Origin: an uncultured bacterium
GTDB lineage: Bacteria > Patescibacteriota > Minisyncoccia > Phycocordibacterales > UBA9973
Assembly (NCBI GenBank): GCA_903888625.1
Contig: CAISUD010000060.1
Span: 1-50,248, forward strand
DNA: 50,248 bases
Reading direction: 5' to 3'
A program made the translations under genes and the position numbers. Shown here piece after piece: positions 1,867-50,248 of this stretch (its first letter is position 1; each line of letters begins with the position of its first letter). Under the pieces are notes generated by a model. That model had not been told where the DNA came from. It saw only the letters and a list, made by a program, of their open reading frames with translations, and searched no databases.

Positions 1867-1868
1867 TT

Positions 1869-3999: not shown

Positions 4000-4000
4000 G

Positions 4001-4156: not shown

Positions 4157-4164
4157 ATAATTTT

Positions 4165-4949: not shown

Positions 4950-4987
4950 CCCCTCTCCTTATAAAGGAGAGGGGCTAGGGGTGAGGT
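4937..4987. repeat. GC-rich palindromic element, copy 1 (complete)
   Basis: Perfect 24-bp arms acctcacccctagcccctctcctt / aaggagaggggctaggggtgaggt with a 3-nt loop. The flank ttctttaggattttaatt is shared with copy 2. Confidence 0.9.
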
Positions 4988-5011
4988 TCTTTAGGATTTT
5001 AATTAAATTTT

Positions 5012-5026: not shown

Positions 5027-5401
5027 ATGAGCTATGTGTCTTATGATGAATTTAAGAAAATGGAAATACGAGTTGGGACTATTTTAAAAGTAGAACCTGT
5101 TCCAGAAACTGACAAACTTCTTTGTTGTCAGGTTGATTTCGGTTCAATTATTATTGAAAATCCTGATGGCACGAAAGAAGAAAAGAGAAACATTAGACAA
5201 ATTATTTCTGGAATTCATGAATATTATCCCGATCCAAGTGTTTTAATCAACAAACAAGTTTTATATATTGTTAATTTAGAACCAAGGACAATCAAAGGTT
5301 ACGAGAGCAATGGGATGTTGATGGCAGTCGATGGAATAGATGGCAAGCCAGTTTTCCTTGTTCCAGAGGTGCCAGTTAACCCTGGAAGTAAAGTTAGATA
5401 A
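5027..5401 (+). CDS. tRNA-binding domain protein (CsaA / EMAP-II-like OB fold)
   Basis: FKKMEIRVGTILKVEPVPETDKLLCCQVDFG ... LEPRTIKGYESNGMLMAV matches the tRNA_bind domain pattern. Confidence 0.75.
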   Translation: MSYVSYDEFKKMEIRVGTILKVEPVPETDKLLCCQVDFGSIIIENPDGTKEEKRNIRQIISGIHEYYPDPSVLINKQVLYIVNLEPRTIKGYESNGMLMAVDGIDGKPVFLVPEVPVNPGSKVR

Positions 5402-5402
5402 A

Positions 5403-7100
5403 ATGGAATATAAAAACGAAACAAAAAACTGTCAGAATTGTAAAAATGAGTTTGTAATCAAACCAGACGATTTTGGGTTTTATGAACAAATGAAAGTTCC
5501 TCCTCCTGTTTGGTGTCCACAGTGTCGCTTACTTCGACGTATGGCTTGGTATGGATATCGAATTTTATATAAACGTAAATGTGATTTTACTGGTGAAAAT
5601 ATAATTACTTTTTATCATCCTAGTGTTCCAGGAAAAATTTATAAACAAGATATTTGGTGGAGTGATAAATGGGATCCAAAAAGTTATGGTCGCGATTATG
5701 ATTTTTCTAAACCATTTTTTGAACAATACAAAGAATTATTTGAGGAAGTTCCTAAGGCTTCACTTAACACAGAATATACTACTATGATAAATAGTGAATA
5801 TTGTAACGCAGCTAGTTTCCAAAAAAATGGTTATCTTTGTTTTAAACATATTACTGGAGAAGATTCTGCTTATACAAACGTAGCATTAAATACAAAAGAT
5901 TCTTTAGATCTTGCTTATTCATCCAACCCAGAACTTTGTTATGAAATAGTGGATGTGCGAAATTCTTTTCAAACTTTTTTTTCGCAAGATTGTGAAAATT
6001 GTCACAGTGTTTATTTCTCTAGAGATTTAGTAAATTGTGGTGATTGTTTTGGATGTACCTCATTAAGGAATAAAAATTATTGTTTATTTAATAAACAATT
6101 AACTAGAGAAGAGTATTTAAAAAAAATTAAAGAATTTGATCTTGGTTCAATGAAAAATGTTTTGGAATTTAAAAGAAAGGCTTATCTTTTGTCATTAGAT
6201 TATCCACGTCGAGCAACTCTTGGTAGAAATAATTTAAATGTTTCTGGAGAATATATATATAATTCAAAAAATGTTCATGATGCGTACTTTGTTTCTGATT
6301 CAGAAAATATTAGATACTCTCAGTTATTTTTAAAAGGGAAAACTCATAATTGTTATGATTTTACAGCTTTTGGTTCTAGTTCAGAATGGATATATGAAGT
6401 AACTTGGATGGGATTAAATACTTCGAATGTTAAATTTGGAATTTGGGGATATCGTAATCATCATACAGAATACACTTTTGGTTGTCATGGGTCTGCTTAT
6501 TTATTTGGTTGTGTTGGTTTAAATAAAGCCGAATATTGTGTTTTTAACAAGCAATATTCCAAAGAAGAATATTTTTCATTAGTTGAAAAAATTAAAAAAC
6601 AAATGGAAAAAATTCCTTTTATTGACAGAAGAGGATTAAAGCATGGATATGGTGGGCAGATACCCATTGATCTTTGCCCATATGCTTATAATGAATCTAC
6701 TGCTTTTGAATTTTTCCCATTAACAAAAGAAGAGGCGATTGCTAAAGGTTTTACTTGGCGTGACCCTGATTCACGTGAATACCTTCCAGCTAGTATTATT
6801 ATTCCAGATCATATTAAAGATGTGACAGATGATATATTAAAAGCAATTTTAAAATGTTTAGCTTGTGGTAAGAATTATCAAATAATTCAAAAAGAGTTAC
6901 AATTTTTACGTCGTTTTAATTTTCCTATTCCACATGATTGTCCACTTTGCCGAGATAGGAATCGTATTAAACAATTAAATCCGATGCAAACATATAAACG
7001 TAGCTGTGGTAAATGCAATATAGTAATTGAAACTTCTTATTCACCAGATCGACCAGAAATAGTTTATTGTGAAAAATGTTATCAGCAGGAAGTTTATTAA
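5403..7100 (+). CDS. cysteine-rich zinc-ribbon-flanked repeat protein, unknown function (paralogue 1)
   Basis: Start set at MEYKNETKNCQNCKNEF by identity with paralogue 2 (track start 5340 overlaps the upstream gene). N- and C-terminal CxxC...CxxC ribbons. Internal CxxCxxCFGCxxL..YCxFNKQ motifs. Confidence 0.75.
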   Translation: MEYKNETKNCQNCKNEFVIKPDDFGFYEQMKVPPPVWCPQCRLLRRMAWYGYRILYKRKCDFTGENIITFYHPSVPGKIYKQDIWWSDKWDPKSYGRDYDFSKPFFEQYKELFEEVPKASLNTEYTTMINSEYCNAASFQKNGYLCFKHITGEDSAYTNVALNTKDSLDLAYSSNPELCYEIVDVRNSFQTFFSQDCENCHSVYFSRDLVNCGDCFGCTSLRNKNYCLFNKQLTREEYLKKIKEFDLGSMKNVLEFKRKAYLLSLDYPRRATLGRNNLNVSGEYIYNSKNVHDAYFVSDSENIRYSQLFLKGKTHNCYDFTAFGSSSEWIYEVTWMGLNTSNVKFGIWGYRNHHTEYTFGCHGSAYLFGCVGLNKAEYCVFNKQYSKEEYFSLVEKIKKQMEKIPFIDRRGLKHGYGGQIPIDLCPYAYNESTAFEFFPLTKEEAIAKGFTWRDPDSREYLPASIIIPDHIKDVTDDILKAILKCLACGKNYQIIQKELQFLRRFNFPIPHDCPLCRDRNRIKQLNPMQTYKRSCGKCNIVIETSYSPDRPEIVYCEKCYQQEVY

Positions 7101-7124: not shown

Positions 7125-8888
7125 ATGGAATATAAAAACGAAACAAAAAACTGTCAGAATTGTAAAAATGAGTTTGTAATCGAACCAGATGATTTTGGAT
7201 TTTATGAAAAAATAAATGTTCCACCTCCAACTTTTTGTCCAGAGTGTAGAATGAAAAGAAGAATGATTTGGAGGAATATAAGATTTTTAACTAAAGGCAA
7301 AGATGCTAAAGGGAACGAAATATTTATGTGTATTCATCCAAAAGCAAAGATTCCAGTGTACGAGTTTTCTTATTGGAACAGCGACAACTGGGGTGCTTTG
7401 AGTTTTGGCAGAGAATATATTTTTACTAAAAACTTTTTTGATCAGTTTCGAGATCTTTTTTATTCTGTGCCATTTCCAGCAAAAACTATTCAGAGATCGA
7501 TTAATTCTGATTATTCAAATAATTGTGATGATATGAAAAATACTTATTTGTGTTTCAATGCTACTTTCTTGGAAGACTGTGCTTATTGCATCGGTGCTAG
7601 TAAGTTAAAAAATTGTTTTGATATGAGTACTTGTTATGAAGATGAACTTTGTTATGAAAGTGTTCGAGTAGATAAAAGTTACCACACTATTGGATCTTAT
7701 ATGTGTGATAGCTGTGTAGATGTCTATTTTTCCAAGGATTGTGTGGGTTGTAATAATTGCTTTGGGTGTGTAAATTTGCGTAATTCTTCTTATAAAATAT
7801 TTAACGTACAATACACAAGGGAAGAATATATTAAGAAATTAGAAACATATAATTTACATACTTGGGGAGGTTTTTCTAAGGCGAAAAAAGAGGCTGAAAA
7901 TTTTTGGAGAAAGTTCCCGATAAAATATATGCTTGGTTTTCGGAATCATATGGTTTCAGGAGAAGATATAAAAGATAGCAGAAATGCAATTAATTGTTAT
8001 GGGGTAAAAGGAGCTGAAAATATTAAATATGTGCAAGATGCTTCTTTTGGTGGAGCTAGTAACTCTTATGATTTTACAAGTTGGGGATTAAACGTGTCTC
8101 AATTGTATGAATGCTTAGTGTGCGGAGAAAACCTTTATGATTTGAAGTTTTGTTATAATTGCTATCCTGACTGTCGAGAACTTGAATATTGTATTCAAAT
8201 GAGAAGATCTAAAAATTGTTTTGGATGTGTAGGGCTTAGAGATAAACAATATTGTGTTTTGAACAAACAATTTTCTAAAGAAGAGTATTGTTCACTAGTT
8301 GAAAAAATCAAGAAACAAATGGAAGAAATTCCTTTTATTGATAAAAAAGGAAATATATATAAATATGGGGAATTTTTTCCAAGCGATCTTTCTCCTTTTG
8401 CTTATAATGAGACTTATTTAAATGATCATTTTCCTTCCAACAAAGAAGAGGTTGAGAATATTGGTTTTAATTGGCGAGATGCAGAAAAAAGAGAATATGC
8501 AACCACTTTGGATTTTAGTGAATTAGTCGAATCTATTAAAGAGGCAGATGAATCAATAACTAAAGAAGTAATAAAATGTTCAGCCTGTAATAAAGCATAT
8601 CGGATTTTAAATAGCGAGTTTAGTTTTTTAAAAAATTTAAATTTACCATTGCCTAGAAAATGTAATAATTGTAGATTTTCCGATAGACAAAAGTTTATAG
8701 TTCCACCAAAATTTACAGAAGCTCAATGTATGTGTGGAGGAGAACAATCTATGAATTTTAAGTATAAAAATACTAGAATACATGATTTTCATAGAGGAGG
8801 AGAATGTCAAAATTTTTTTATGACCGCTTATGACTCTCAAAAAGATATTATTTATTGTGAAAAATGTTATCAGCAGGAAGTTTATTAA
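7125..8888 (+). CDS. cysteine-rich zinc-ribbon-flanked repeat protein, unknown function (paralogue 2)
   Basis: Same architecture as 5403-7100. The first 57 nt and last 38 nt are identical at DNA level to paralogue 1. Confidence 0.75.
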   Translation: MEYKNETKNCQNCKNEFVIEPDDFGFYEKINVPPPTFCPECRMKRRMIWRNIRFLTKGKDAKGNEIFMCIHPKAKIPVYEFSYWNSDNWGALSFGREYIFTKNFFDQFRDLFYSVPFPAKTIQRSINSDYSNNCDDMKNTYLCFNATFLEDCAYCIGASKLKNCFDMSTCYEDELCYESVRVDKSYHTIGSYMCDSCVDVYFSKDCVGCNNCFGCVNLRNSSYKIFNVQYTREEYIKKLETYNLHTWGGFSKAKKEAENFWRKFPIKYMLGFRNHMVSGEDIKDSRNAINCYGVKGAENIKYVQDASFGGASNSYDFTSWGLNVSQLYECLVCGENLYDLKFCYNCYPDCRELEYCIQMRRSKNCFGCVGLRDKQYCVLNKQFSKEEYCSLVEKIKKQMEEIPFIDKKGNIYKYGEFFPSDLSPFAYNETYLNDHFPSNKEEVENIGFNWRDAEKREYATTLDFSELVESIKEADESITKEVIKCSACNKAYRILNSEFSFLKNLNLPLPRKCNNCRFSDRQKFIVPPKFTEAQCMCGGEQSMNFKYKNTRIHDFHRGGECQNFFMTAYDSQKDIIYCEKCYQQEVY

Positions 8889-17057: not shown

Positions 17058-17087
17058 AGACCCTAGTATAGCATTAAATTTGATATT

Positions 17088-17130
17088 GCTCCCTCTCCTT
17101 AATAAGGAGAGGGCAAGGGTGAGGTTCTTT
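17088..17130. repeat. GC-rich palindromic element, copy 2 (left arm truncated)
   Basis: gctccctctcctt aata aggagagggcaagggtgaggttcttt. The right arm and flank match copy 1 at 4964-5000. Confidence 0.8.
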
Positions 17131-17152
17131 TGGATTTTTAATTTATAAAATA

Positions 17153-18541: not shown

Positions 18542-19603
18542 ATGCAAACCTTAAAAGACTTTGATTTAACAGATTACAATACCTTTGGCATAAATGCTAA
18601 AGCAAAATTTTTAGTTGAGATAAATAAAGAAGCAGATTTTTTAGAATTACTTGAAACTACTGAATACAAAAACAACCAAAAACTTTTTTTAGGCGGAGGA
18701 AGTAATATGCTTTTAGTGAAAGATTTTGACGGGCTCATTGTTTTAAATAAATTAAAAGGCATTGAAATAATTAAAGAGGATGAGGAAAATGTCTGGGTAA
18801 AAGCGATGGGTGGGGAAATATGGAACGATTTGGTTTTATTTTCAGTTGAAAAAGGTTTTTGGGGACTTGAGAATTTGTCGCTCGTGCCAGGCACCGTCGG
18901 TGCTTCACCAGTACAAAATATTGGAGCCTATGGGTCTGAAGCTAAAGATACTATCTTTGAAGTTGAGGCTATCGATATAAAAAATGCAGGGAAAAAAGTT
19001 TTTACAAATAAAGAATGTGAGTTTGGTTATCGAGATAGTATTTTCAAAAATAAATTAAAAGGTAAATATTTTATTATTGCAGTTATTTTTAAATTAAGTA
19101 AAAAACAAAATAAAAATGTAAATTATCGAGCCTTGCAAGAATATTTGGATGAAAATAAATTGGAAATAAAAAGCTCGGGGGATGTAGCCAGAATTATTGC
19201 CGAAATCAGAGAGAGTAAATTACCCAATCCAAAAATTTTAGGTAATGCTGGAAGTTTTTTCAAAAATGTATATGTGGATATAGATAAATTGTTAGAGATA
19301 GAATTGTTATATCCGGATGTTCCATGTTTCGAAGAGGAAAACAGAACCTCACCCCTGACCCCTCTCCTTAATAAGGAGAGGGGAAACCAGACAATAAAAA
19401 TCCCGACAGCGTGGCTCATAGAGAAATGTGGTTGGAAAGGCAAAAGAGTCGGTAATGTCGGCGTACACATCAAACAATCGCTCGTTTTAGTAAATTATGG
19501 CGGAGCCACCGGCGCGGAAGTCTTGGACTTAGCCAATAAAATAATCGATTCCGTTGATCAAAAATTCGGCATAAAACTCACCCTCGAAGTGAATTTGATT
19601 TGA
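18542..19603 (+). CDS. murB: UDP-N-acetylenolpyruvoylglucosamine reductase
   Basis: FAD-binding N-terminus FLGGGSNMLL, LSLVPGTVGASPVQNIGAYG, GNAGSFFKN, and a C-terminal AWLIEKCGWKG ... LVLVNYG region. Confidence 0.9.
   Translation: MQTLKDFDLTDYNTFGINAKAKFLVEINKEADFLELLETTEYKNNQKLFLGGGSNMLLVKDFDGLIVLNKLKGIEIIKEDEENVWVKAMGGEIWNDLVLFSVEKGFWGLENLSLVPGTVGASPVQNIGAYGSEAKDTIFEVEAIDIKNAGKKVFTNKECEFGYRDSIFKNKLKGKYFIIAVIFKLSKKQNKNVNYRALQEYLDENKLEIKSSGDVARIIAEIRESKLPNPKILGNAGSFFKNVYVDIDKLLEIELLYPDVPCFEEENRTSPLTPLLNKERGNQTIKIPTAWLIEKCGWKGKRVGNVGVHIKQSLVLVNYGGATGAEVLDLANKIIDSVDQKFGIKLTLEVNLI
19346..19383. repeat. GC-rich palindromic element, copy 3, in-frame inside murB
   Basis: acctcacccctgacccctctcctt aata aggagagggg. 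Translated as TSPLTPLLNKERG within the murB reading frame. Confidence 0.85.
19546..19603 (+). repeat. direct repeat A: functional 3' end of murB
   Basis: Aligns without gaps to 20802-20859, with 17-nt identical blocks gatcaaaaattcggcat and cgaagtgaatttgattt. Confidence 0.85.
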
Positions 19604-20801
19604 TATTCATAGGTAATAAGTTATCCACACCACGAAATTGACTTAATTCGTGGTTTCTGATACCATGAAATTATGCAATTTAATAGAATACAAACAATAG
19701 AAAAAGAACTTTCTCCCAAAAGGGTTTTAATTGTATATGGCCCAAGAAGAATTGGTAAAACCACATTAGTAAAAGCTTTTGCTGAAAAAAATAAGAACAG
19801 AAAAGTTTTGTTTTCTGTAGGAGATGATATGAGGTTACAAAAGCTTTTTAACTCCGGTCTTCGGAAGGAAATATTAGAATGGGCAATACCCTACGAAATT
19901 CTTATTATTGATGAAGCTCAATATATAAAAAATATTGGTCAAGCTATTAAAATGATAATTGATGAATATGGAGACAAGAAAATTATTTTAACTGGATCTT
20001 CTTCTTTTGAAATTGCTCAAAATGTGGGCGAGCCATTGACTGGTCGTCATTTTACTATGACATTACTGCCAATTATGCAGAACGAAATTTTAAAAAGTAA
20101 TTTTGAAAAAAAAGAGATACTCGAAGATATTCTTGTTTTTGGATCTTACCCAGAAATTTTAATACAAAATGATAAAGAACAAAAAATACGTATTTTAGAT
20201 GAGTTAGTAAGTTCGTATCTTTTAAAAGATATTTTGATTTTGGATAAAATAAAATCACCCAATACATTAATTGATATTTTGAAAGCTTTAGCCTTTCAAG
20301 TTGGTAATGAAGTTTCTTTTGCAGAAATAGGCAATCTTGTTGGTAGAGATACAAAAACGGTTCAAAGATATATTGATATTTTAGAAAAAACCTTTGTTTT
20401 AAAACGAGTCAAAGGTTATAGTAAAAATTTAAGAAAAGAAATATCTAGAAAATCTAAATTTTACTTTTATGATTTAGGGGTGAGAAATGCAATTATCAAT
20501 CAATATAATGGGGTTTCATTAAGGAATGATGTCGGTGCGCTATGGGAGAATTTTGTTTTTATGGAGCTTTATAAAAAATCTCTTGCTTTTAAAGAATACA
20601 AAGAATTTTATTTTTGGAGAACTCATGAAGGTGCAGAAGTAGATATAATTACAGAAAAAGATGGGAAGATATCAGCTTATGAATGTAAATGGACAAAAGA
20701 TGGTTCTAAAAATTTAAAATTATTTAAAACAATTTATCCAGATGCAGAAATTAGTGTCGTCAATAAAGATAATTATTTGGATTTTTTAACTGTAAAACAA
20801 T
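19604..20801 (+). mobile_element. putative single-gene cassette (AAA+/DUF4143 ATPase) inserted in the murB 3' end
   Basis: Bounded by the duplicated murB tail. Carries its own TTGACT-17-TACCAT promoter. A paralogous arrangement occurs at secY. Confidence 0.5.
19638..19666 (+). promoter_or_regulatory. promoter TTGACT-17-TACCAT (TGa extended -10), leaderless
   Basis: The -10 ends 6 nt before ATG 19673. Confidence 0.5.
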
Positions 20802-20809
20802 CGATTTAG
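19673..20809 (+). CDS. AAA+ ATPase with DUF4143-type C-terminal domain (COG1373-like)
   Basis: Walker A GPRRIGKTT, Walker B LIIDEAQ, central HTH-like region, C-terminal EVDII...YECKW (D...ExK nuclease-like motif). Confidence 0.8.
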   Translation: MQFNRIQTIEKELSPKRVLIVYGPRRIGKTTLVKAFAEKNKNRKVLFSVGDDMRLQKLFNSGLRKEILEWAIPYEILIIDEAQYIKNIGQAIKMIIDEYGDKKIILTGSSSFEIAQNVGEPLTGRHFTMTLLPIMQNEILKSNFEKKEILEDILVFGSYPEILIQNDKEQKIRILDELVSSYLLKDILILDKIKSPNTLIDILKALAFQVGNEVSFAEIGNLVGRDTKTVQRYIDILEKTFVLKRVKGYSKNLRKEISRKSKFYFYDLGVRNAIINQYNGVSLRNDVGALWENFVFMELYKKSLAFKEYKEFYFWRTHEGAEVDIITEKDGKISAYECKWTKDGSKNLKLFKTIYPDAEISVVNKDNYLDFLTVKQSI

Positions 20810-20859
20810 TCGATCAAAAATTCGGCATCAAACTTGTCCCCGAAGTGAATTTGATTTAG
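20802..20859 (+). repeat. direct repeat B: displaced, diverged copy of the murB 3' end
   Basis: Still reads DQKFGIKLVPEVNLI* in the murB frame (functional copy: DQKFGIKLTLEVNLI*). 11 mismatches in 58 nt. Confidence 0.85.
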
Positions 20860-20876: not shown

Positions 20877-20918
20877 ACCCGGTAGTAGAATTTTTTGCAA
20901 AAAATCTCACTACCGGGT
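20877..20918 (+). terminator. long hairpin following the relic murB tail
   Basis: acccggtagt ... actaccgggt outer stem with an inner A/T stem. The 3' end overlaps GGGTATAAT (a possible -10 for the FKBP gene). Confidence 0.45.
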
Positions 20919-28351: not shown

Positions 28352-28357
28352 ATTATA

Positions 28358-28385
28358 AATTACGAATTATCAATTACGAATTAAA
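28358..28385 (+). repeat. intergenic spacer motif family A (28-mer)
   Basis: aattacgaattatcaattacgaattaaa is identical to 44025-44052. Internally it is two copies of aattacgaatta. Confidence 0.9.
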
Positions 28386-28386
28386 G

Positions 28387-28857
28387 ATGCGAAGAAAAAT
28401 AAAAAATAAAAATATCGTTGAACCAGATTTCATTTATAACTCTCAAAAATTAGAGAAATTTATCAATTACACTATGTGGTCTGGAAAGAAGGAGACTGCT
28501 CGAAAAGTAATGTATAAAGCTTTTGATGTTATTAAAGAAAAAACTGGCAATCCAAATCCACTTGAGATTTTTGATTTGGCTATGAAAAATGCAGGACCTC
28601 TTACAGAAGTTCGTTCAAAAAGAATTGGAGGTGCTAACTACCAAGTGCCTCGAGAAGTTCGTCCAGAACGCCGACTTGCTCTTGCAATGCGTTGGATTCG
28701 TGATGCCGCTCGTTCTAAAAAGGGACAACCAATGCATATTAAACTTGCTGATGAATTAATTTCAGCTTCAAAAAATGAAGGTGCAGCTATTAAGAAAAAA
28801 GAAGATACTCACAAAATGGCAGAATCCAACAAAGCCTTTGCTCACTTCGCTTGGTAA
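28387..28857 (+). CDS. rpsG: 30S ribosomal protein S7
   Basis: GGANYQVPREVRPERRLALAMRWI ... KAFAHFAW. Confidence 0.95.
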   Translation: MRRKIKNKNIVEPDFIYNSQKLEKFINYTMWSGKKETARKVMYKAFDVIKEKTGNPNPLEIFDLAMKNAGPLTEVRSKRIGGANYQVPREVRPERRLALAMRWIRDAARSKKGQPMHIKLADELISASKNEGAAIKKKEDTHKMAESNKAFAHFAW

Positions 28858-43682: not shown

Positions 43683-44024
43683 ATGATAAATAAAACTGAC
43701 AAAAGAATAAGATTAAAAACAAAAATTAGAGCTAAAATTTCTGGGACTAAAGAATGTCCAAGACTTTCTGTTTTTCGTTCTAACAAATTTATTTATGCAC
43801 AAATTATTGATGATAGTACCAGTAAAACTTTAGCCCAGGCTAGTGATATCAAAATGGTTAAAGGGACAAAGATAGAAAGAGCTAAAGAAGTTGGTAAGAA
43901 CGTAGCACTTGCTTGTGCTAAAATAAAAATTACCAAAGTTGTTTTCGATCGAAATGGTTTTAAATATACTGGGAGAGTAAAATTAGTAGCTGATACAGCC
44001 CGAGAGGGAGGTCTGAAGTTTTAA
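43683..44024 (+). CDS. rplR: 50S ribosomal protein L18
   Basis: [19 protein letters not shown] ... [27 protein letters not shown]. Confidence 0.95.
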
Positions 44025-44052
44025 AATTACGAATTATCAATTACGAATTAAA
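44025..44052 (+). repeat. intergenic spacer motif family A (second copy)
   Basis: Identical 28-mer to 28358-28385. Here it lies between rplR and rpsE. Confidence 0.9.
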
Positions 44053-44054
44053 AA

Positions 44055-44603
44055 ATGGATAAAGATAATAAAAAAAATAATAATCGTAGGTCAAGTTCTT
44101 TTGACAGACCGAAGCCAGAGTTTGATCAAAAAATTATTGATATTCGTCGAGTCACTCGGGTAGTTGCTGGAGGACGCCGATTTTCTTTTAGTGTGGCTCT
44201 CATTGCTGGAGACAAAAAAGGAGCTATTGGTCTTGGTCTCGGAAAAGCTGGGGACACTGCACTCGCTATTAATAAAGCTCTTCGTAATGCAAAGAAAAAT
44301 ATGGTTAAGGTTAATTTGACTAAAACCATGTCTATTCCACATGAAATTTCTGCTAAATTTTCTAGTTCCCAAATTAAATTAATGCCAAACAAGGGCCGTG
44401 GCCTCGTAGCAGGTTCTGCAGTGCGAGATATTATTAAGTTGGCTGGAATGAAAGACATTACCGGCAAGATTTTGTCTGGTAGTAAAAATAAATTAAACAA
44501 TGCCAAGGCTGTTATGTTGGCCTTATCTTCAATTTCTAGTAAATATGTAAAAATAGTGCCAGAGACAATCGTAGTTGCTAATAAAGAAATCGTGAAAGAA
44601 TAA
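44055..44603 (+). CDS. rpsE: 30S ribosomal protein S5
   Basis: IDIRRVTRVVAGGRRFSFSVALIAGDKKGAIGLGLGKA. Confidence 0.95.
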   Translation: MDKDNKKNNNRRSSSFDRPKPEFDQKIIDIRRVTRVVAGGRRFSFSVALIAGDKKGAIGLGLGKAGDTALAINKALRNAKKNMVKVNLTKTMSIPHEISAKFSSSQIKLMPNKGRGLVAGSAVRDIIKLAGMKDITGKILSGSKNKLNNAKAVMLALSSISSKYVKIVPETIVVANKEIVKE

Positions 44604-44626
44604 AATTACCAGCTAAATTAAAAACT

Positions 44627-44938
44627 ATGCAAATAAATAATTTAAAAAGAGTTCATAAGAATAAAAAAGACCGCTTGGTCGGACGAGGAGGTAAGCATGC
44701 CAAAACTTCCGGACGGGGAGGTAAAGGGCAGACAGCTCGAGCTGGAAACAAGCGTCGTCCAGAGCTTCGTGATATCATAAAGAAGTTACCAAAGAATCGT
44801 GGTTATAGATTTAAATCTATTCACAAAAAAGTTTTAGTAGCCAAGGATAAAGTTGTTACCAAAGATGGCAAGCCGGAAACCTATTCAGAAATTCGAAAGA
44901 GATTAAATTTAAAAGGAGGCAAAATAGTTATAAAGTAA
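44627..44938 (+). CDS. rplO: 50S ribosomal protein L15 (short form, 103 aa)
   Basis: LVGRGGKHAKTSGRGGKGQTARAG ... LPKNRGY. It follows rpsE after 23 nt, so no L30 gene lies between them. Confidence 0.8.
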   Translation: MQINNLKRVHKNKKDRLVGRGGKHAKTSGRGGKGQTARAGNKRRPELRDIIKKLPKNRGYRFKSIHKKVLVAKDKVVTKDGKPETYSEIRKRLNLKGGKIVIK

Positions 44939-44962
44939 AAAGTTGAAAGTTTGTAAAGTACA

Positions 44963-46234
44963 ATGAATAATTTTTGGAATAAAATGAAATTAATTTGGAC
45001 AGACATCTCTCTACGTAAGAAGATTCTGTTTGTTTTAGGTGCCTTAGTAGTTTTTAGACTTCTAGCATCTATTCCAATTCCAGGAATCGACACTGTAGAG
45101 CTCAATCGTTTTCTATCCAACAATCAATTTTTCGGAATCTTAAATATCTTTTCCGGGGGTGGACTTTCTAATCTTTCGATCATCATGCTTGGAGTCGGAC
45201 CATATATTACTGGTTCGATTATTATGCAACTTCTTACAATTATGGTGCCAGCCTTAAAAAGGCTTTACCACGAAGAAGGCGAGCTTGGCAGAAAGAAATT
45301 TTCTCAATATTCCAGGTTAATCACTGTTCCACTTGCAGCTGTTCAAGGTTTTTCACTGCTTGCAATTTTACAATCACAACATATTTTAACTAACTTAACT
45401 TTTTTCAGTAAAATGACCAATTTGATTGTCGTCATCGCTGGTTCTATCTTGTTGATGTGGATCGGAGAATTGATGTCAGAATTTGGTATTGGAAACGGTG
45501 TTTCACTTTTGATTTTTGCTGGTATCGTGGCTCGGATTCCTTCCGAAGTCGGACAATTCTTTTTCTCTTTTGATGTTTCGCAAATCCCGCTTTTGTTATT
45601 GTTCATCGCTATGGGCGCCCTGGTTATTGCGGGGGTAGTGGTGGTGACCGAAGCTGAACGACCAATTCCGGTGACCTATGCCAAGCAAGTTCGAGGTTCG
45701 AAAATGTATGGTGGTGGTTCTACTTATTTACCACTTCGCGTAAACCAAGCTGGAGTTATTCCAATTATTTTTGCTCTTTCAATTTTACTCTTTCCTCAAA
45801 TGATCGGTAACTTTATGGCTGGTTCCGCTAATGCCATTGTACTTAAAATTTCTCATGCTTTAGTTGCTTTTTCACAAACATCCTGGCTATATGCAGTCTT
45901 ATATTTTATTTTAGTTTTCCTTTTCACTTATTTTTATACAGCCGTCACTTTCGACCCAGAAGCACTTTCGACTAATTTGCAAAAAAATGGAGCCTTCATC
46001 CCAGGTATCAGGCCTGGTGCATCGACTTCAACTTATATTTCAAAAGTTTTAAATCGTATCACCTTACTTGGAGCCATCTTCCTTGGTTTGATTGCTATTT
46101 TACCGCTCATCATGCGAGCCGTAACCGGCATCACCGCTATCGCTATGGGTGGCACAGCCCTCCTCATCGTTGTCTCAGTTTTACTTGATCTCATTAAAAA
46201 AGTAGACGCCCAGATCTCTATGCGAGAATACTAG
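44963..46234 (+). CDS. secY: preprotein translocase subunit SecY
   Basis: RKKILFVLGALVVFRLLASIPIPGID ... LGVGPYITGSIIMQLL ... ten TM helices. Confidence 0.95.
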   Translation: MNNFWNKMKLIWTDISLRKKILFVLGALVVFRLLASIPIPGIDTVELNRFLSNNQFFGILNIFSGGGLSNLSIIMLGVGPYITGSIIMQLLTIMVPALKRLYHEEGELGRKKFSQYSRLITVPLAAVQGFSLLAILQSQHILTNLTFFSKMTNLIVVIAGSILLMWIGELMSEFGIGNGVSLLIFAGIVARIPSEVGQFFFSFDVSQIPLLLLFIAMGALVIAGVVVVTEAERPIPVTYAKQVRGSKMYGGGSTYLPLRVNQAGVIPIIFALSILLFPQMIGNFMAGSANAIVLKISHALVAFSQTSWLYAVLYFILVFLFTYFYTAVTFDPEALSTNLQKNGAFIPGIRPGASTSTYISKVLNRITLLGAIFLGLIAILPLIMRAVTGITAIAMGGTALLIVVSVLLDLIKKVDAQISMREY

Positions 46235-46236
46235 GA
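46196..46236 (+). repeat. direct repeat A: functional 3' end of secY
   Basis: aaaaaagtagacgcccagatctctatgcgAgaatactagga. 40 of 41 positions identical to 47412-47452. Confidence 0.9.
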
Positions 46237-47411
46237 TTCAGGTTGCATTTTAGGTATGTATTTTGTATACTATACTCATGAATTATATACGACAAATAAC
46301 CAATAATTTAAAGAATAATTTAGGTAAAAAACCAATTATTGTTCTTTATGGGGCTAGACAAGTCGGAAAAACTACTTTAGTAAAGAATATTTTAACTGAT
46401 TTTAAAAATCCTCTTTACCTTCAAGGAGATGACCCAAAAGACATTCTTTTGTTAGAAAAAAAATCTGGAAAAGAACTTCAAACACTTGTTAGTAATCATG
46501 ATATTATTATCATCGATGAAGCACAACAAGTTGAAAATATTGGTAATATTTTAAAACTTATTGCTGATAATGTACCAGGAGCAAATGTAATTGCTACCGG
46601 ATCTAGTTCTTTTGATTTAGCAAATAAAATTAGTGAACCCCTGACTGGCAGAAATCGCAAATTTTATTTATATCCGCTCTCAATAAAAGAAATTATTTTG
46701 GCTTATGGAGAAATTGATGTAAATAAAAAACTCGAAGAGTATTTAATTTTTGGAATGTATCCGCAAATAGTAAATTCATCTTCACGTGAAGAAAAAAAAA
46801 TATTAGTTAAAGAATTAGTGAGTGATTATTTATTTAAAGATTTGTTTTTATTTGGTGATATTCGCAATTCTTTTGCTTTTGAAAAATTAGTAAAATTGCT
46901 CGCACTTCGTGTTGGAAGTGAAATCTCATATTCGGAACTCGCCAAAGAAATTGGGATTAGTCGCGATACTGTTTTAAATTATGTTACTTTATTAGAACAA
47001 TCATTTATTATCTTTCGTTTAAAACCATTGTATACAAATAAAACGAAAGAAATTAATAAAACTCATAAAATATATTTTTATGATATTGGTATTAGAAATG
47101 GAGTTTTAGGTAATTTTGATCCACTTGAATTAAGATCAGATAAAGGTGCAGTTTTTGAGAATTTTTTTATCTCTGAAAAACTAAAACAACGGTCATATCT
47201 GGGTGATGATAGTGATATAAATTTTTGGCGTAATAGGCAAGCTGGGGAAGTTGATTTTATTGAATCTTTTCATCAAGGAAGAGAATTATTTGCATATGAA
47301 TGTAAATGGAAAGAAATTGTTAGTACACCTATTTCATTTAAAAATATTTATCCGAATGCAAAATTTACCTGCATAACAAGTTTTAATATAGTAGATCATT
47401 TTAATCAAATC
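46237..47411 (+). mobile_element. putative single-gene cassette (AAA+/DUF4143 ATPase) inserted in the secY 3' end
   Basis: Bounded by the duplicated secY tail. Has its own TTGCAT-17-TATACT promoter. Same design as the murB insertion. Confidence 0.5.
46243..46271 (+). promoter_or_regulatory. promoter TTGCAT-17-TATACT, leaderless
   Basis: The -10 ends 6 nt before ATG 46278. Confidence 0.45.
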
Positions 47412-47450
47412 AAAAAAGTAGACGCCCAGATCTCTATGCGGGAATACTAG
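46278..47450 (+). CDS. AAA+ ATPase with DUF4143-type C-terminal domain, fused in-frame to the relic secY tail
   Basis: Walker A GARQVGKTT, Walker B IIIDEAQ, EVDFI...YECKW. The last 12 aa KKVDAQISMREY equal the SecY C-terminus. ATG 46278 is preferred to the track TTG 46263. Confidence 0.8.
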   Translation: MNYIRQITNNLKNNLGKKPIIVLYGARQVGKTTLVKNILTDFKNPLYLQGDDPKDILLLEKKSGKELQTLVSNHDIIIIDEAQQVENIGNILKLIADNVPGANVIATGSSSFDLANKISEPLTGRNRKFYLYPLSIKEIILAYGEIDVNKKLEEYLIFGMYPQIVNSSSREEKKILVKELVSDYLFKDLFLFGDIRNSFAFEKLVKLLALRVGSEISYSELAKEIGISRDTVLNYVTLLEQSFIIFRLKPLYTNKTKEINKTHKIYFYDIGIRNGVLGNFDPLELRSDKGAVFENFFISEKLKQRSYLGDDSDINFWRNRQAGEVDFIESFHQGRELFAYECKWKEIVSTPISFKNIYPNAKFTCITSFNIVDHFNQIKKVDAQISMREY

Positions 47451-47452
47451 GA
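47412..47452 (+). repeat. direct repeat B: displaced copy of the secY 3' end
   Basis: One synonymous difference (cgA/cgG) from 46196-46236. Followed by a family-C-type CTAG spacer. Confidence 0.9.
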
Positions 47453-47479
47453 CTAGTTTATAGGTTCTAGTTGTTAGGT

Positions 47480-48250
47480 TTATTTATTTAATCTTTTAGC
47501 CTCAGCCAAAGCAAGTTTGAAAACACTTCGCAAGGTTGTGGCTATTTCTTTTGATTCGATAATGATTCCTAATTTTTCCTTCCAGGAAGCGATCATAACT
47601 TTGTCATTATAGATTTCTATGTCAGTTGGTACAGGAAATTCATTCTGAGGAACGAGAGTCGTATCTCGATATTCAATTTGATCATTGGCTTTTCTTTTAT
47701 GGGCAAGGGGAGTGTCGGCTACGAAAGTATGGATGAATATTTTTTTCTTGGCACGTCGTTCGTAATAAGTAGAAAAATATTTTGGCAATGTTTCGTGCAT
47801 TTCTTCATAAGTAGAAGTTGAATAAATGTCTCCTTTTGAAGACAAAGAATCTTCATAAACATGCTCGAGCCCCTCAAGTCCTTCATAGAAACTTATTTTT
47901 GGTCTGTCCCCGACATTATGCATTAAAGTGAGTTCTGGTAATATTTCAAGCGCACTTTCGGCTAAGTTTTTTTGAATTTCTGCTTGTTTATTTAAGTATT
48001 CAATTAATTTAATAGGGGAGAGGGCAACATATTCTTGTTTTGGTTCTTTGCCAGAAATGTTTACTAGGTTTTTACTAGCGAGACTGTCGAGAATCACATA
48101 GCCAGTTGATCGGTTAATTCCTGCTTTTCGAGAAATCTCGGCAACTGTTCCTCGACCGAGTTCTAGTATAGTCAAATATATAGCTATTTCTTTGTCTAAA
48201 AAGCCACTTTCTTTTAATATTTCCTTTGTTTTTAATAATTGTTCTTTCAT
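47480..48250 (-). CDS. TrmB-family transcriptional regulator
   Basis: N-terminal wHTH GFLDKEIAIYLTILELGRGTVAEISRKAGINRSTGYVILDSLASKNLV plus a TrmB-like C-terminal domain. Confidence 0.8.
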   Translation of the reverse strand: MKEQLLKTKEILKESGFLDKEIAIYLTILELGRGTVAEISRKAGINRSTGYVILDSLASKNLVNISGKEPKQEYVALSPIKLIEYLNKQAEIQKNLAESALEILPELTLMHNVGDRPKISFYEGLEGLEHVYEDSLSSKGDIYSTSTYEEMHETLPKYFSTYYERRAKKKIFIHTFVADTPLAHKRKANDQIEYRDTTLVPQNEFPVPTDIEIYNDKVMIASWKEKLGIIIESKEIATTLRSVFKLALAEAKRLNK

Positions 48251-48366
48251 ATATAAGCATTATATTCCAAAGCCTATTTTGTGTCAATAGAAAATAACAA
48301 AATTTTGTGGATATCTTTTTAACCTTAAAATATATAGCTCAAAATAAATTAAATTGGTAAATTTGC

Positions 48367-48394
48367 TTGACAATATATTTAATTCTGCTATACT
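48367..48394 (+). promoter_or_regulatory. promoter TTGACA-16-TATACT (TGc extended -10)
   Basis: gcttgacaatatatttaattctgctatact. Followed by a ~110-nt leader before ATG 48508. Confidence 0.55.
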
Positions 48395-48507
48395 TATATC
48401 AAATAAGGTTATTTGAAAAAAGTTTTTAGTAGTCATTAATTGGTTTTCCAAGGCTCTTTCTGGGGTTTTAGATAACTAATTAATTATTAACTAAAAAAAT
48501 AAAAGCA

Positions 48508-49188
48508 ATGAAAACAAATTCTAAACAATTTAAGTATATTTCTTCTGATTGGGAAGATTTTTATGAAGAGTTCCTAAATATATGTAGAAAAGAACACGAA
48601 ACCGAAAATTTTTTTTATCTTCGTAGAGATTGGGAAAATTTCTATCGGCAGTATTTCGGACTAGAAGTCGATTTGTCTGAAATTCTAGTACCTCAATGTT
48701 CTAAAGAAAATTATTACCTTTTGTTTATGATAAAAGTGACACCGCAATTTGTATATGATGTATGGAATAACAAACGTCGTACAGAAAAAAGCTCATTTTG
48801 GGGAGATTCGAACTATGATCTCCATGATGGAAAGTTTGATCTTGATAAAGAAATAACATTAGGGAGAAATACAACTGAATCATATGCAGTATGGGTGCAA
48901 GGGGGTAAACGTCCTGTTCGTTACGACTATAATTCTTATTCTGAATCTATGACCATAAATTCTGGTATCACTCTTCTTGAACAAATGGTTTTCCAATCAA
49001 ATTATTACTTTAAAACAGGAAATTTGTTGGATAAAAAAATTACAACTCTTTGTGATGGGTCAAGAGACCGCGAGGGATGTATCCCAAGTATTGGATATAA
49101 TGGTAGTGGTATATTGATTATAAATCAATCAAATCCGACATATGATTTTTGGGTTGAAAAAGGCCGTCGTGAAATAGTAGTTCATTGA
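48508..49188 (+). CDS. hypothetical protein
   Basis: 226-aa ORF with an internal duplicated DWEDFYEEF / DWENFYRQYF motif. No recognisable family. Confidence 0.5.
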   Translation: MKTNSKQFKYISSDWEDFYEEFLNICRKEHETENFFYLRRDWENFYRQYFGLEVDLSEILVPQCSKENYYLLFMIKVTPQFVYDVWNNKRRTEKSSFWGDSNYDLHDGKFDLDKEITLGRNTTESYAVWVQGGKRPVRYDYNSYSESMTINSGITLLEQMVFQSNYYFKTGNLLDKKITTLCDGSRDREGCIPSIGYNGSGILIINQSNPTYDFWVEKGRREIVVH

Positions 49189-49239
49189 AAATTCTAAAAA
49201 CAAATAAAATAAAGTGTTAAACAATTAAAAATTGAAATT

Positions 49240-49725
49240 ATGAAAAGAATCCTTATTGTACAGATTGGCGGCACGATTGCTGGCGGTTATGAAAATGATC
49301 AATTAGTTTATGGAGGAGGCCCGAGAGAGTTAATTGGCAAGTATTTATCCAAAGCCGGAATAGGTACCAATACTCTTGATATTGTGCCTTCTGACCCAAA
49401 CATTCAAATTGATTTCACAATTGATTATGATGTTCTCTTTTTCAAGAATAGCACGGAAGTAACAGATGATGACAGGCTAAAGATTGCTGCATATTTGCAG
49501 GCAGTAAACTATGATCAAATCATTGTACTTTACGGCAATAACCCGGAGTCTTACTTTCGTACTGAAAAGTACGTTAAAGAGGTAGTTAAAAGAAAAACTA
49601 TTGTTTTCGTTGGATCAAAAAAGCCATTCGATGTTTATTTTTCAGATGCGCCTATTTTTCTTGGTATGGCTATCACAATGGTTCAATTGAAAGAACCCGG
49701 AGTTTATCATGTTATAAACTTCTAA
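49240..49725 (+). CDS. hypothetical protein with an asparaginase/glutaminase-like N-terminal motif
   Basis: ILIVQIGGTIAGG resembles asparaginase signature 1 (ILATGGTIAGG). The region equivalent to HGTDT reads YGNNP. Confidence 0.35.
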   Translation: MKRILIVQIGGTIAGGYENDQLVYGGGPRELIGKYLSKAGIGTNTLDIVPSDPNIQIDFTIDYDVLFFKNSTEVTDDDRLKIAAYLQAVNYDQIIVLYGNNPESYFRTEKYVKEVVKRKTIVFVGSKKPFDVYFSDAPIFLGMAITMVQLKEPGVYHVINF

Positions 49726-49743
49726 AAGAAATGTTTTAAAATC

Positions 49744-49776
49744 AAAACCCGCGGAGCAATCTTGCGGGTTTTTTAT
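49744..49776 (+). terminator. rho-independent terminator
   Basis: aaaacccgc / gcgggtttt stem with an 11-nt loop and a T run. Confidence 0.75.
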
Positions 49777-49796
49777 TTTATACTATAATAGAAAAT

Positions 49797-50192
49797 ATGG
49801 TAACAGAATATATGGGTCCAATAGGCCTTGAACCAAAAAGTAATAATTATGAACATGCTCATGAATTAGCCGAAGCTATATCTGAAGAATTTCTGAAAAG
49901 ATATGATTTAGATGGACATGGAATCGAAGAAACAACAGGGGTAAAATATGATAGTGACATGGATTTTTGGAGTTATGAAATGCTCCAGAATAATAAAGGA
50001 GAGAAACCAAAATCGAAGGAAGAAGTTGTTACAGTTTTTGAAGAAATAATAAATGGAATATATGAATGGGATTTATCAAACAAATCTGATTCTGATTTAA
50101 ATAAGGTTTATAATACCCAAAGGGGATTTCCCCGTCGGCTTGCCGCGGGGCTCCTTGTAGGAAAGATTGAAAACCCTCGGTTTTCAAGTTAA
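49797..50192 (+). CDS. hypothetical protein
   Basis: 131-aa acidic ORF. No recognisable motif. The window ends 56 nt downstream. Confidence 0.4.
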   Translation: MVTEYMGPIGLEPKSNNYEHAHELAEAISEEFLKRYDLDGHGIEETTGVKYDSDMDFWSYEMLQNNKGEKPKSKEEVVTVFEEIINGIYEWDLSNKSDSDLNKVYNTQRGFPRRLAAGLLVGKIENPRFSS

Positions 50193-50248
50193 ACTAGAGG
50201 CATGAGCCTCAAACGAACTTACCACAATATATATGACACACACTATCA

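Follow-up and report, generated by a model that had tools for sequence, protein, structure and literature searches.

Why does a gene for an ATPase-nuclease lie between two copies of the 3′ end of secY, and which process put it there? The window (the whole stretch of DNA analyzed, 50,248 nucleotides of a Patescibacteria (CPR) bacterium) contains a complete secY gene (44963-46234, + strand; 423 amino acids; Pfam SecY, E = 7.6e-101), which closes a ribosomal-protein operon. As an earlier note on this DNA had claimed, 41 nt comprising the functional secY tail, its stop codon, and 2 further nt (46196-46236, + strand) recur at 47412-47452 (+ strand) with a single mismatch, the synonymous change CGA/CGG. 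The downstream copy is a relic secY tail and now forms the 3′ end of the ATPase open reading frame (ORF). With a synonymous ATT/ATC codon the repeat is 44 nt long (from 46193 in the upstream copy), and it extends weakly to 52 nt at 90% identity. Behind the downstream copy lies a CTAG-rich spacer with a weak terminator-like hairpin (47446-47471, + strand; a terminator-like match), the original gap between the secY stop and the convergent gene. That gene encodes a TrmB-family regulator (47480-48250, - strand; Pfam TrmB, 3e-13) and is the native neighbor of secY.

When up to 3 mismatches were allowed, the 41-mer occurred twice in the whole window and a third copy was absent, while two matches arose in 0 of 100 shuffled sequences. 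The protein tail that it encodes, IKKVDAQISMREY followed by the stop codon, is kept in 80 SecY relatives. An Rfam search of positions 44000 to 50248 gave zero matches. A dispersed terminator or REP-like element was ruled out, the 41-mer being unique secY coding sequence with only two copies rather than a general terminator-like element.

The same junctions were present in five further contigs from other samples (L001-L004 and L175; 99.6 to 100% identity), and some of the contigs with secY junctions had been assembled at k = 141. An assembly artefact was excluded because both junctions occur in independent assemblies, the repeat is shorter than k = 141, and a single-nucleotide polymorphism distinguishes its copies. 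Among SecY relatives (77 to 91% identity), 0/80 had an ATPase gene after secY, and a second copy of the secY tail was found in 0 of the 77 that were testable; together with the independent assemblies, this marks the cassette as a true insertion. One relative (L147) represents the empty site, with a TrmB gene (85% identical) directly after secY. A CTAG-rich spacer of like kind directly follows the secY stop in L099, L129, L152, and L143, in agreement with the claim that the spacer behind the downstream copy is of native type. Within the same species no empty allele was seen because every contig with an identical SecY carries the cassette. In the comparison meant to identify the native copy, synonymous sites proved saturated even against the closest SecY (91% amino acid identity) and MurB (73%) relatives.

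The inserted cassette (46237-47411, + strand; about 1.17 kb, 1172 nt between the repeats) consists of a promoter and the ATPase-nuclease coding sequence and, in this copy, lacks its own stop codon. ORF and domain searches between the secY repeats and in the adjacent genes found one ORF in the interval and no integrase or recombinase, and comparison of the cassette ends found no terminal inverted repeats. The promoter, of the sigma-70 type (46243-46271, + strand), has the -35 box TTGCAT (46243-46248), a 17-nt spacer, and the -10 box TATACT (46266-46271), so that the interval holds what had been described for it, namely, this promoter and one ATPase gene. A consensus promoter scan did not list TTGCAT/TATACT because the -35 box matches only 3 of 6 positions. 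Both boxes, at identical spacing, are kept across 30 homologous loci, in which the family promoter consensus ggTATACTTGCtATTTTAaGTATATATATTGTATACTATACct-ATG has a conservation of about 0.80, versus 0.37 for background. Operator-like TATAC/GTATAC palindromes lie at the promoter (TTGTATAC/GTATAC), and such repeats at the left edge of the cassette co-vary with the protein subfamily. The ATPase start was placed by homology at the ATG at 46278, with a TTG at 46263 likewise open. Since this ATG sits only 6 nt past the -10 box, the ATPase mRNA is probably leaderless. In the 30 loci, family-wide DNA conservation begins about 43 nt upstream of the ATG, and the repeat in the window ends at -42; the left edge of the cassette thus coincides with the start of conservation. 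Beyond the coding sequence, at the right end, the homologous loci show no conservation.

The ATPase ORF (46278-47450, + strand; 390 amino acids) has its own sequence up to 47408 (ending HFNQ); its last 13 codons and stop (47409-47450) are the duplicated secY tail. It shares the secY frame across the second repeat copy and ends HFNQ-IKKVDAQISMREY, which bears out the proposed in-frame fusion of the ATPase to a relic secY tail. Homologues cover 96% of the ATPase and stop near HF; in the 30 loci, conservation ends at "NIVxHF" and is followed by 0 to 11 variable residues. In two homologues (P0002 and P0003), the stop codon falls within the tail of a convergent neighbor. An AF2 model of the ATPase has a pLDDT of 80, with the SecY-derived residues 379 to 390 below 50. 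Since homologues end 0 to 11 variable residues past HF and residues 379 to 390 are modeled with low confidence, the SecY tail on the ATPase is probably incidental read-through.

The cassette protein matches Pfam AAA_14 (2.3e-28) and DUF4143 (2.7e-38), both above the cut-offs, and the PADLOC profile for PDC-S01 (PDLC04789; E = 4.9e-133; residues 3 to 374 of 390, profile positions 2 to 372 of 375). GxxxxGKT and DEAQ (Walker A and B), E294, D326, and E341-C-K343 are invariant in 13 aligned sequences, and, as judged from this alignment, the Walker and PD-(D/E)xK motifs of the secY-cassette protein are intact. DUF4143 is classed as PD-(D/E)XK (PMC3424549). The protein joins an AAA+ ATPase domain to a winged helix and a PD-(D/E)xK nuclease domain. 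An NCBIfam search assigned no family to the cassette proteins, giving at most weak sub-threshold matches (e.g., IstB). A sequence search of solved structures returned P-loop-level matches only (TnsC, E = 0.004), which were dismissed as not meaningful.

The window holds a sister case at murB. A second PDC-S01 gene (19673-20809, + strand; 378 amino acids), a paralogue 36% identical to the secY-cassette ATPase over 367 residues, also matches the PADLOC PDC-S01 profile over its full length (E = 5.7e-131). It is flanked by a 65-nt repeat of 86% identity, of which the upstream copy (19537-19601, + strand) is the functional murB tail and the downstream copy (20793-20857, + strand) is a relic murB tail, behind which lies the native promoter region of FKBP. 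The promoter of this cassette (TTGACT, 17 nt, TACCAT; 19638-19666) is flanked by the inverted repeat CCACGAA/TTCGTGG, and TTATCCACA lies at 19621-19629. The ATPase ends at a TAG inside the downstream repeat, in a frame different from that of murB. Empty murB-FKBP sites are present in two relatives (L166 and L169), so that the locus and its relatives offer clean filled-site/empty-site pairs in two essential genes, secY and murB. The functional murB copy matches relatives at 51 to 52 of 66 nt and the relic at 46 of 66 nt; if anything, the functional copy appears closer to the relatives. A "mobile tail" common to distant MurBs was considered and rejected: the C-terminal peptide of P0156 is almost identical, but its DNA matches at 51 of 66 nt with synonymous differences, and its site is empty.

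In about 1.2 Mb of selected loci, flanking repeats of 44, 65, 44, 44, 87, 70, and 30+ nt surround 7 of ∼63 distinct PDC-S01 genes, versus 3 distinct control ORFs (4 matches) of 233 to 234, an enrichment of ∼8-fold. Lengths range from 30 to 87 nt with a mode of 40 to 44 nt, and several repeats are imperfect (86 to 93% identity). At two of the loci (L018 and L042) the repeats coincide in part with dispersed repeats and may not stem from an insertion. The earlier note had seen in secY and murB a reproducible pattern of one gene family, one position relative to the stop codon of an essential gene, and one kind of tail duplication. The pattern itself holds up, given the 65-nt murB repeat and the empty murB-FKBP relatives; its restriction to one gene family does not. 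Like repeats flank three unrelated inserts (in L119, L021, and L034), a PaaX-like gene (40 nt), a subtilase gene (44 nt), and an AbiE pair (80 nt), and the duplication signature is not specific to the PDC-S01 family. The common position was not upheld either, since other repeat-flanked cases involve terminators, a convergent orientation, or the tails of genes that are not essential. Family-wide targeting of secY or murB was likewise ruled out: no other ATPase locus adjoins SecY, and MurB is found only at a distance, non-adjacent, in L077.

Two of these loci indicate where the repeat comes from. In L158, whose ATPase is 76% identical to that of the secY cassette, a repeat of ∼44 nt consists of internal codons of the tail of a convergent peptidase gene, with the stop codon outside the repeat. 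The native peptidase end (...EEEVRFQSPNIQ and stop) and its terminator have been left behind upstream, and the present gene terminates in ...EEEVKFK. In L119, the repeat is a perfect one of 40 nt from the tail of a cmk-like gene; the last two codons and the stop lie outside it, and the native end is stranded beyond the insert. In L158 and L119, the genes have exchanged their native ends for short new tails; secY and murB stay intact. Since both repeats are internal to a coding tail and leave the native gene end as a relic, comparison of these loci indicates that the repeat is target-derived and not a replacement tail brought by the cassette. The suggestion that the upstream, functional secY copy had arrived with the cassette is therefore not supported, although at secY itself the 1 or 2 synonymous differences between the copies are too few to decide it; the functional murB copy is, if anything, nearer to relatives.

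The answer that we favor, with somewhat more belief than doubt, is that secY received, 41 to 44 nt upstream of its end, a self-contained cassette of one gene acquired by horizontal transfer and that the target segment was duplicated by the insertion through a host or trans-acting pathway. The insertion event itself would have duplicated the segment, possibly through the filling in of two nicks some four helical turns from each other or, alternatively, through a template switch during replication, with re-entry into the chromosome ∼40 nt behind the point of departure. One repeat copy would then complete secY and the other would remain as a relic, with the in-frame SecY-tail fusion as a by-product. 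The duplication would be the work of a host or otherwise trans-acting pathway, not of a cassette-borne recombinase and probably not of the ATPase itself; we know of no prokaryotic pathway documented for duplications of 40 to 90 nt. The bias toward 3′ ends would be explained without targeting by survivorship in compact genomes, where only those insertions may be seen that kept the neighboring gene functional, by duplication or by a fortuitous new stop. The protein may act as an ATP-dependent DNA-sensing nuclease, with a candidate anti-phage or selfish function, and may repress its own promoter through its winged helix-turn-helix (wHTH) domain.

A different and rather unlikely course would be a Campbell-type event, in which a circular DNA with the cassette and 40 to 90 nt of a donor secY tail entered the recipient secY tail by a single RecA-type crossover, so that the repeats are chimeras of donor and recipient. 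It is close to the idea, in the earlier note, of a tail brought by the cassette. The secY copies differ at two sites, both synonymous, as would fit two once-functional secY alleles, and imperfect repeats such as those of 86 to 93% identity would also be accommodated. The murB relic reads LVPEVNLI, a natural variant found in 12 MurB relatives, versus LTLEVNLI in the functional copy. About 40 nt is the minimal length for RecA-dependent recombination, and the floor of repeat length near 40 nt therefore favors this reading. It requires, however, a donor with the cassette beside the same tail, and neither the 80 SecY relatives nor the two nearest MurB contexts inspected supplied one; the nearest ATPase homologues occupy unrelated sites. 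The internal repeats of L158 and L119 would further demand a prior disruptive simple insertion at the exact point, and the relic, not the functional murB copy, is the more distant from relatives.

Could the PDC-S01 protein instead mobilize its own gene, either as a new kind of mobile element with one gene or as a nuclease gene that homes ectopically? We regard this as improbable, as we do the steps that it would take: binding of the left-end palindromes by the wHTH, nicks placed 40 to 90 nt, or some four helical turns and more, apart by the PD-(D/E)xK domain of an AAA+ oligomer on the target, and repair that copies or ligates the cassette and fills the gaps. The ∼8-fold enrichment is consistent with it, in that the protein could contribute to its own insertion, and so are the minimal unit, which holds only a promoter and a stop-less ORF, and the subfamily-specific operator-like repeats, placed at the left edge as in many IS elements. 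PDC-S01 proteins retain ∼70% amino acid identity across different CPR classes, and the family was defined by its "embedded" state inside other operons (bioRxiv 10.1101/2024.01.29.577857), embedding being the way the family was discovered and not a criterion of sequence membership. Against self-insertion, terminal inverted repeats are missing and the right end has no site matching the left. The repeat lies at a variable distance from the conserved ends, 5 to ∼270 nt at the left and -39 to +50 nt at the right. Paralogues in one genome are not near-identical copies, with only 36 to 45% identity, and one identical protein (P0015) stays in a single stable context in 24 contigs. The PaaX-like gene, the subtilase gene, and the AbiE pair have like repeats with no ATPase inside, and to our knowledge no protein of the PD-(D/E)xK/AAA+ type is a complete transposase.

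Islands and prophages that integrate at the 3′ ends of genes or tRNAs (tRNA/tmRNA islands; phage 21 and e14 in icd) carry a replacement tail. Like them, the cassette is bounded by a direct repeat that takes in a conserved gene's 3′ end, and the target is left intact. Unlike them, it has no integrase and comprises a single 1.2-kb gene, the repeats vary in sequence and length between loci, and those of L158 and L119 do not restore the native C terminus. Under a further reading, which we hold to be very improbable, the cassette would be what is left of a larger island that carried an integrase, or a unit mobilized in trans by a site-specific recombinase, with the repeats as attL/attR and the rest deleted. 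Direct repeats that span a gene 3′ end are the classic signature of such elements, and in a sister contig an IS200/IS605 Y1 transposase gene lies ∼2.7 kb beyond the ATPase; Y1 transposases, however, produce no target duplication. Neither inside the unit nor adjoining it is there an integrase, the repeats of L158 and L119 are internal to coding tails, and in at least 5 independent loci the repeat-bounded unit is only the single gene of the 1.17-kb type, with unrelated repeats of different lengths.

Transposons, casposons, and Cas1-Cas2 in CRISPR repeat duplication also leave an insert between direct copies of its target. Cas1-type integrases are the known prokaryotic makers of long duplications, of 14 to 15 bp for casposons and 28 to 37 bp for CRISPR repeats. 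The duplications here differ in being 40 to 87 nt and variable, without terminal inverted repeats and with neither a transposase nor Cas1 inside or close to the unit; a search of the cassette for DDE, HUH, serine, and tyrosine recombinases and Cas1 found only AAA_14 and DUF4143. Unlike transposons, the cassettes do not occur as identical elements in multiple copies, and the duplication length is neither fixed nor element specific. Free-standing homing endonuclease genes (such as seg and mob of T-even phages; PD-(D/E)xK homing enzymes exist) resemble the cassette as single nuclease genes with their own promoter, found between conserved genes or at their ends, with a patchy distribution among relatives. 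Homing, in contrast, proceeds without target duplication, whereas both repeat copies are intact here, and the site is occupied by the cassette in 0/80 SecY relatives, the nearest homologues being elsewhere.

Insertion with target duplication by a host or trans-acting pathway, the reading that we prefer, bears on both the genomes and the protein family. The loci share a recurrent insertion signature without an integrase and with a target duplication of 40 to 90 nt, which was not described in the literature searched on DUF4143/COG1373/PDC-S01 and on target duplications in Patescibacteria. If a host or other pathway makes the duplications, it would be a previously unrecognized way for ultra-compact CPR genomes to gain genes and would explain how cassettes land in the ends of essential genes without killing the cell. 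The locus and its relatives also give a precise anatomy of the transferable unit, a minimal promoter/operator with an ORF that here lacks its own stop.

PDC-S01 (AAA_14 plus DUF4143; COG1373) is a "phage defence candidate" that was found by guilt-by-embedding (bioRxiv 10.1101/2024.01.29.577857). It is reported to rank fourth in frequency among prokaryotic defence calls and to be common in lineages with small genomes, Patescibacteria among them, and its anti-phage activity is still unvalidated (PMC12988326). The locus thus bears on a family among the most frequent prokaryotic "defence" calls. Both window proteins resemble it in being full-length matches to its profile, single-gene units with an ATPase and a PD-(D/E)XK domain. 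They differ in their setting, which is not a defence operon: the neighbors are secY and TrmB in one case and murB and FKBP in the other. Neither a flanking target duplication nor the conserved promoter/operator cassette structure was described in the PDC-S01 literature searched, and four plasmid-borne homologues from non-CPR bacteria, a small sample (n = 4), had no flanking repeats. Should the protein insert itself after all, it would represent a novel class of mobile elements, and tens of thousands of genes now annotated as defence would have to be reinterpreted; the "embedded" hallmark on which the defence-candidate label is based would then reflect self-insertion and not immunity.

A Foldseek search with the whole chain of the cassette protein gave 2fna (E = 6.6e-08) and 2qen (E = 8.5e-07) as best matches, over ∼356 aligned columns. 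These are SSO1545 and PABY2304, respectively, archaeal AAA+ ATPases of the PF01637 plus DUF234 type. They are the best whole-chain fold matches but share only 16 to 18% identity with the cassette protein and give no mechanistic transfer. The C-terminal domain of the murB paralogue matches DUF234 weakly.

A 41-nt direct repeat, AAAAAAGTAGACGCCCAGATCTCTATGCG(A/G)GAATACTAGGA, was found at 46196-46236 and 47412-47452 and reaches 44 nt once the preceding synonymous ATT/ATC codon is included. The upstream copy is the 3′ end of a complete secY gene (44963-46234; Pfam SecY, E = 7.6e-101). No third copy was present in the window with up to 3 mismatches allowed, and two matches to the repeat were recovered in 0 of 100 shuffles. 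The copies are separated by 1172 nt containing a single ORF, whose start was placed by homology at the ATG at 46278. This ORF crosses the downstream copy in the secY frame, giving a product that ends ...HFNQ-IKKVDAQISMREY*. These data bear out the earlier note, which had described a repeated tail and an ATPase fused in frame to it. The fusion is incidental, because the ATPase ORF has no stop codon before the junction and reads into the flank. The same structure was observed in five other contigs from different samples (L001-L004 and L175; 99.6 to 100% identity), part of them built at k=141. An assembly artefact was ruled out, since the contigs of other samples agree, k=141 exceeds the repeat length, and the copies differ by one SNP.

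A metagenome scan yielded 80 loci encoding SecY proteins 77 to 91% identical to that of the window. The ATPase was found 3′ of secY in none of the 80, and of the 77 whose downstream sequence was available, none showed the tail twice in direct orientation. Every relative alignable at the SecY C terminus ends in a single (I/M)KK(V/I)DAQ(I/V)SMREY-type tail, and the tail DNA varies freely at synonymous sites. In one relative (L147), secY is directly followed by an 85%-identical counterpart of the convergent TrmB gene found beyond the window cassette; in four others (L099, L129, L152, and L143), a CTAG-rich spacer of the kind found after the downstream repeat directly follows the secY stop. The ancestral order was therefore secY, the CTAG spacer/hairpin (47446-47471 in the window), and convergent trmB, and the secY-tail ATPase cassette is an insertion. 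The second such gene in the window (19673-20809), at murB, behaves the same way. In two murB relatives (L166 and L169), an FKBP gene lies ~60 nt after murB; in the window, a 1.19-kb cassette and then a 65-nt relic tail (86% identity) come between murB and the FKBP promoter.

What lies 3′ of secY differs greatly from one to the next of the 80 relatives. In the window, secY is the last gene of a ribosomal-protein operon; adk, map, infA, and rpmJ are absent from 46234 onward. The genes after the cassette encode TrmB, two proteins without a family match, and an asparaginase-like protein, and a sister contig carries an IS200/IS605 Y1 transposase just past the position of the window end.

Upstream and downstream flanks were compared for 67 full-length homologues in ~1.2 Mb of fetched CPR sequence, representing ~63 distinct cassettes, with a locus seen in several assemblies (L158-L161) counted once. 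Significant flanking direct repeats were detected at the window secY (44 nt) and murB (65 nt) cassettes and at loci L158 (~44 nt, with an indel), L041 (44 nt), L020 (87 nt), and L018 (61 to 70 nt), as well as in L042, around the second member of a tandem pair (30 nt exact, ~150 nt with gaps). The two L042 genes (1702-4225) are divergent, and the second has its own repeat, which suggests that it inserted beside a pre-existing cassette. Among 234 control ORFs of 250 to 500 aa at the same loci, flanking repeats occurred at only 4 (3 distinct), and each was a dispersed intergenic repeat or a promoter duplication.

Two loci were decisive for the origin of the repeats. In L158, the repeat spans codons FQPDKVILGKEEEV in a convergent peptidase gene. 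Beyond the cassette, the native peptidase end (RFQSPNIQ*) survives with its terminator as a stranded relic that was later frameshifted, and the functional gene now terminates in KFK*, read from the cassette edge. In L119, a perfect 40-nt repeat of the tail of a cmk-like gene leaves out the last two codons. Both repeats omit the native gene ends. The repeat is therefore target derived: it duplicates whatever stretch of the target was hit and is not a designed replacement tail. The proposals that the upstream, functional secY tail arrived with the cassette and that insertion is tied to the stop codons of essential genes were not supported. In the main rival explanation, a circular fragment carrying the cassette plus a donor tail would have joined the chromosome through one homologous crossover. 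The purely synonymous differences between the secY copies, a natural variant (VPEV) in the murB relic, and a repeat-length floor of ~40 nt speak for such an event; the required donors were not found, and L158 and L119 fit it awkwardly. We regard this crossover as possible but doubtful. Five of the ten repeats around ATPase and other inserts are 40 to 44 nt long.

These other inserts were found with an all-against-all repeat scan. In L119, a SecY relative, a PaaX-like gene (6278-7041; 182 aa; PaaX_M, 2.5e-19) sits right after secY, bracketed by the perfect 40-nt repeat taken from the tail of the cmk-like gene, which is convergent. A subtilase gene in L021 (1573-3952), beside a PDC-S01 cassette, lies between 44-nt repeats (89% identity), and an AbiE toxin-antitoxin pair with an AbiEii toxin in L034 (1908-3034) lies between 80-nt repeats (99% identity). 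The duplication signature is thus not specific to the ATPase. Flanking repeats were found at none of four non-CPR plasmid-borne homologues. An identical homologue (P0015) had one unchanged context in 24 contigs, paralogues within a genome are only 36 to 45% identical, and nothing resembles a proliferating transposon. Near each end of the PaaX-like insert is a 28-bp palindrome, GTGAATTCTAGCATATGCTAGAATTCAC, and L147 has a related palindrome in its secY-trmB interval.

The secY-cassette gene is clearly a member of PDC-S01, a phage-defence-candidate family. Both window proteins, which share 36% identity, contain AAA_14 and DUF4143 domains and match PADLOC PDC-S01 over their full length (E = 4.9e-133 and 5.7e-131). 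DUF4143 (COG1373) has been placed in the PD-(D/E)XK superfamily (PMC3424549). Walker A, Walker B, and E294...D326...E341-C-K343 were invariant in a 13-member alignment. An AlphaFold model of the secY-cassette protein (pLDDT 80, pTM 0.71) predicts an ATPase core together with helical and winged-helix regions and an alpha/beta domain at the C terminus, with pLDDT <50 for the SecY-derived residues 379-390. Among solved structures, two uncharacterised AAA+ proteins from archaea, 2fna and 2qen, matched best, ahead of STAND and ORC-type ATPases; a PDB sequence search gave only P-loop-level matches. What defined the family was its occurrence "embedded" within multi-gene defence systems (bioRxiv 10.1101/2024.01.29.577857), and it is reported to be the fourth commonest defence call in prokaryotes, though without experimental validation (PMC12988326).

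Comparison of homologues set the cassette boundaries. More than 7,900 were found, many 66 to 76% identical across different CPR classes. Almost all are ~376 to 380 aa long, with 96% query coverage, and the final 13 residues are therefore a peculiarity of the secY locus. Across 30 loci, upstream DNA conservation was at background from -80 to -60 (mean top-base frequency, 0.37), rose near -43, and averaged 0.80 over the last 45 nt before the ATG. The window secY repeat ends at -42, the exact start of this family-wide conservation. The left-end consensus, ggTATACTTGCtATTTTAaGTATATATATTGTATACTATACct-ATG, comprises a -35 box (TTGACA or TTGCTA), a 17-nt spacer, a -10 box (TATACT), and GTATAC palindromes. 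The ATG lies 6 nt past the -10 box, and the predicted mRNA would therefore be leaderless. The murB-type subfamily keeps this promoter geometry with different inverted repeats around the -35 box: CCACGAA/TTCGTGG in the window and ATCCACAAA/TTTGTGGAT in homologous locus L074. These left-end inverted repeats are putative operators for the protein's wHTH domain. At the right end, conservation runs through NIVxHF and is followed in homologues by 0 to 11 unrelated residues; in P0002 and P0003, the ATPase stop codon lies within the convergent neighbour's tail. No terminal inverted repeats were found at the secY cassette ends. Mobilisation of the cassette by its own ATPase-nuclease could draw on the enrichment of flanking repeats at PDC-S01 genes, the minimal unit, and the left-end palindromes. 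It is nevertheless unlikely, given variable gaps between repeat and cassette end, no right-end site, no identical copies, and the same repeats around non-ATPase cargo.

The promoter sequence TTTGTATACTAT (46262-46273) recurs in inverted form, as ATTGTATACAAA, within the ATPase gene (47027-47038), at the codons for the invariant PLYTNKT motif; the inverted copy could be an additional operator site, or codon use could have produced it by chance. The window has a single TTATCCACA, the consensus DnaA-box sequence, at the murB cassette left edge (19621-29). This motif is also found immediately before the promoter in several of the homologous cassettes (L030, L031, and L041) and, reversed, inside the L018 repeat.

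The cassette is a horizontally acquired, self-transcribed single-gene unit in which no recognisable recombinase was found. Our preferred reading, at about even odds, is a one-step insertion, in which the two target strands would be broken ~40 to 90 nt apart or a replication template switch would re-enter behind its departure point. Host or unknown trans-acting functions would be the agents, and survivorship in a compact genome would account for the preference for gene tails and terminators. Three known classes come close to this insertion, but a defining feature of each was looked for and was absent. Islands targeting 3′ ends are defined by an integrase, whereas none is present at the secY cassette, and a decayed integrase island is very improbable. 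In contrast with transposon, casposon, or CRISPR-type target duplications, the secY-type insertion has no transposase, inverted repeats, or fixed length. Free-standing homing endonuclease genes leave no duplication and should share a site, while the secY cassette has a duplication and no shared site. The searchable literature yielded no description of a 40- to 90-nt duplication signature. The observation, a defence-candidate cassette with an undescribed insertion signature, is solid and raises a testable question.

Other repeats were noted in the window. A GC-rich palindromic element (ACCTCACCCCT..CCCCTCTCCTTAxxAAGGAGAGGGG..) occurs at 4937-5000, 17077-17138, and 19346-19383; the third copy, inside the murB ORF, coincides with a 16-codon insertion relative to 337-aa MurB relatives and is a candidate in-frame MITE/REP-like insertion. 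The FKBP promoter motif GGTGTATAATT, conserved in L166 and L169, is interrupted in the window by a 40-nt hairpin, cccggtagtagaattttttgcaaaaaatctcactaccggg (20878-20917). With GGGTGTATAA and GGGTATAA at its flanks, the hairpin resembles a small palindromic insert accompanied by a short duplication. Tandem paralogous genes at 5340-7100 and 7125-8888 (586 and 587 aa) share DNA segments of 74 to 90% identity and identical 38-nt 3′ ends. The intergenic repeat AAATTACGAATTATCAATTACGAATTAAAG precedes two ribosomal-protein genes (28357-28410 and 44024-44077), and similar ATTACGAATTA repeats lie in the same operon of a relative (L125). At the window start (28-420), inside the first ORF, a 117-nt unit is present as three copies in tandem at a spacing of ~135 to 141 nt, with 71 to 90% identity.
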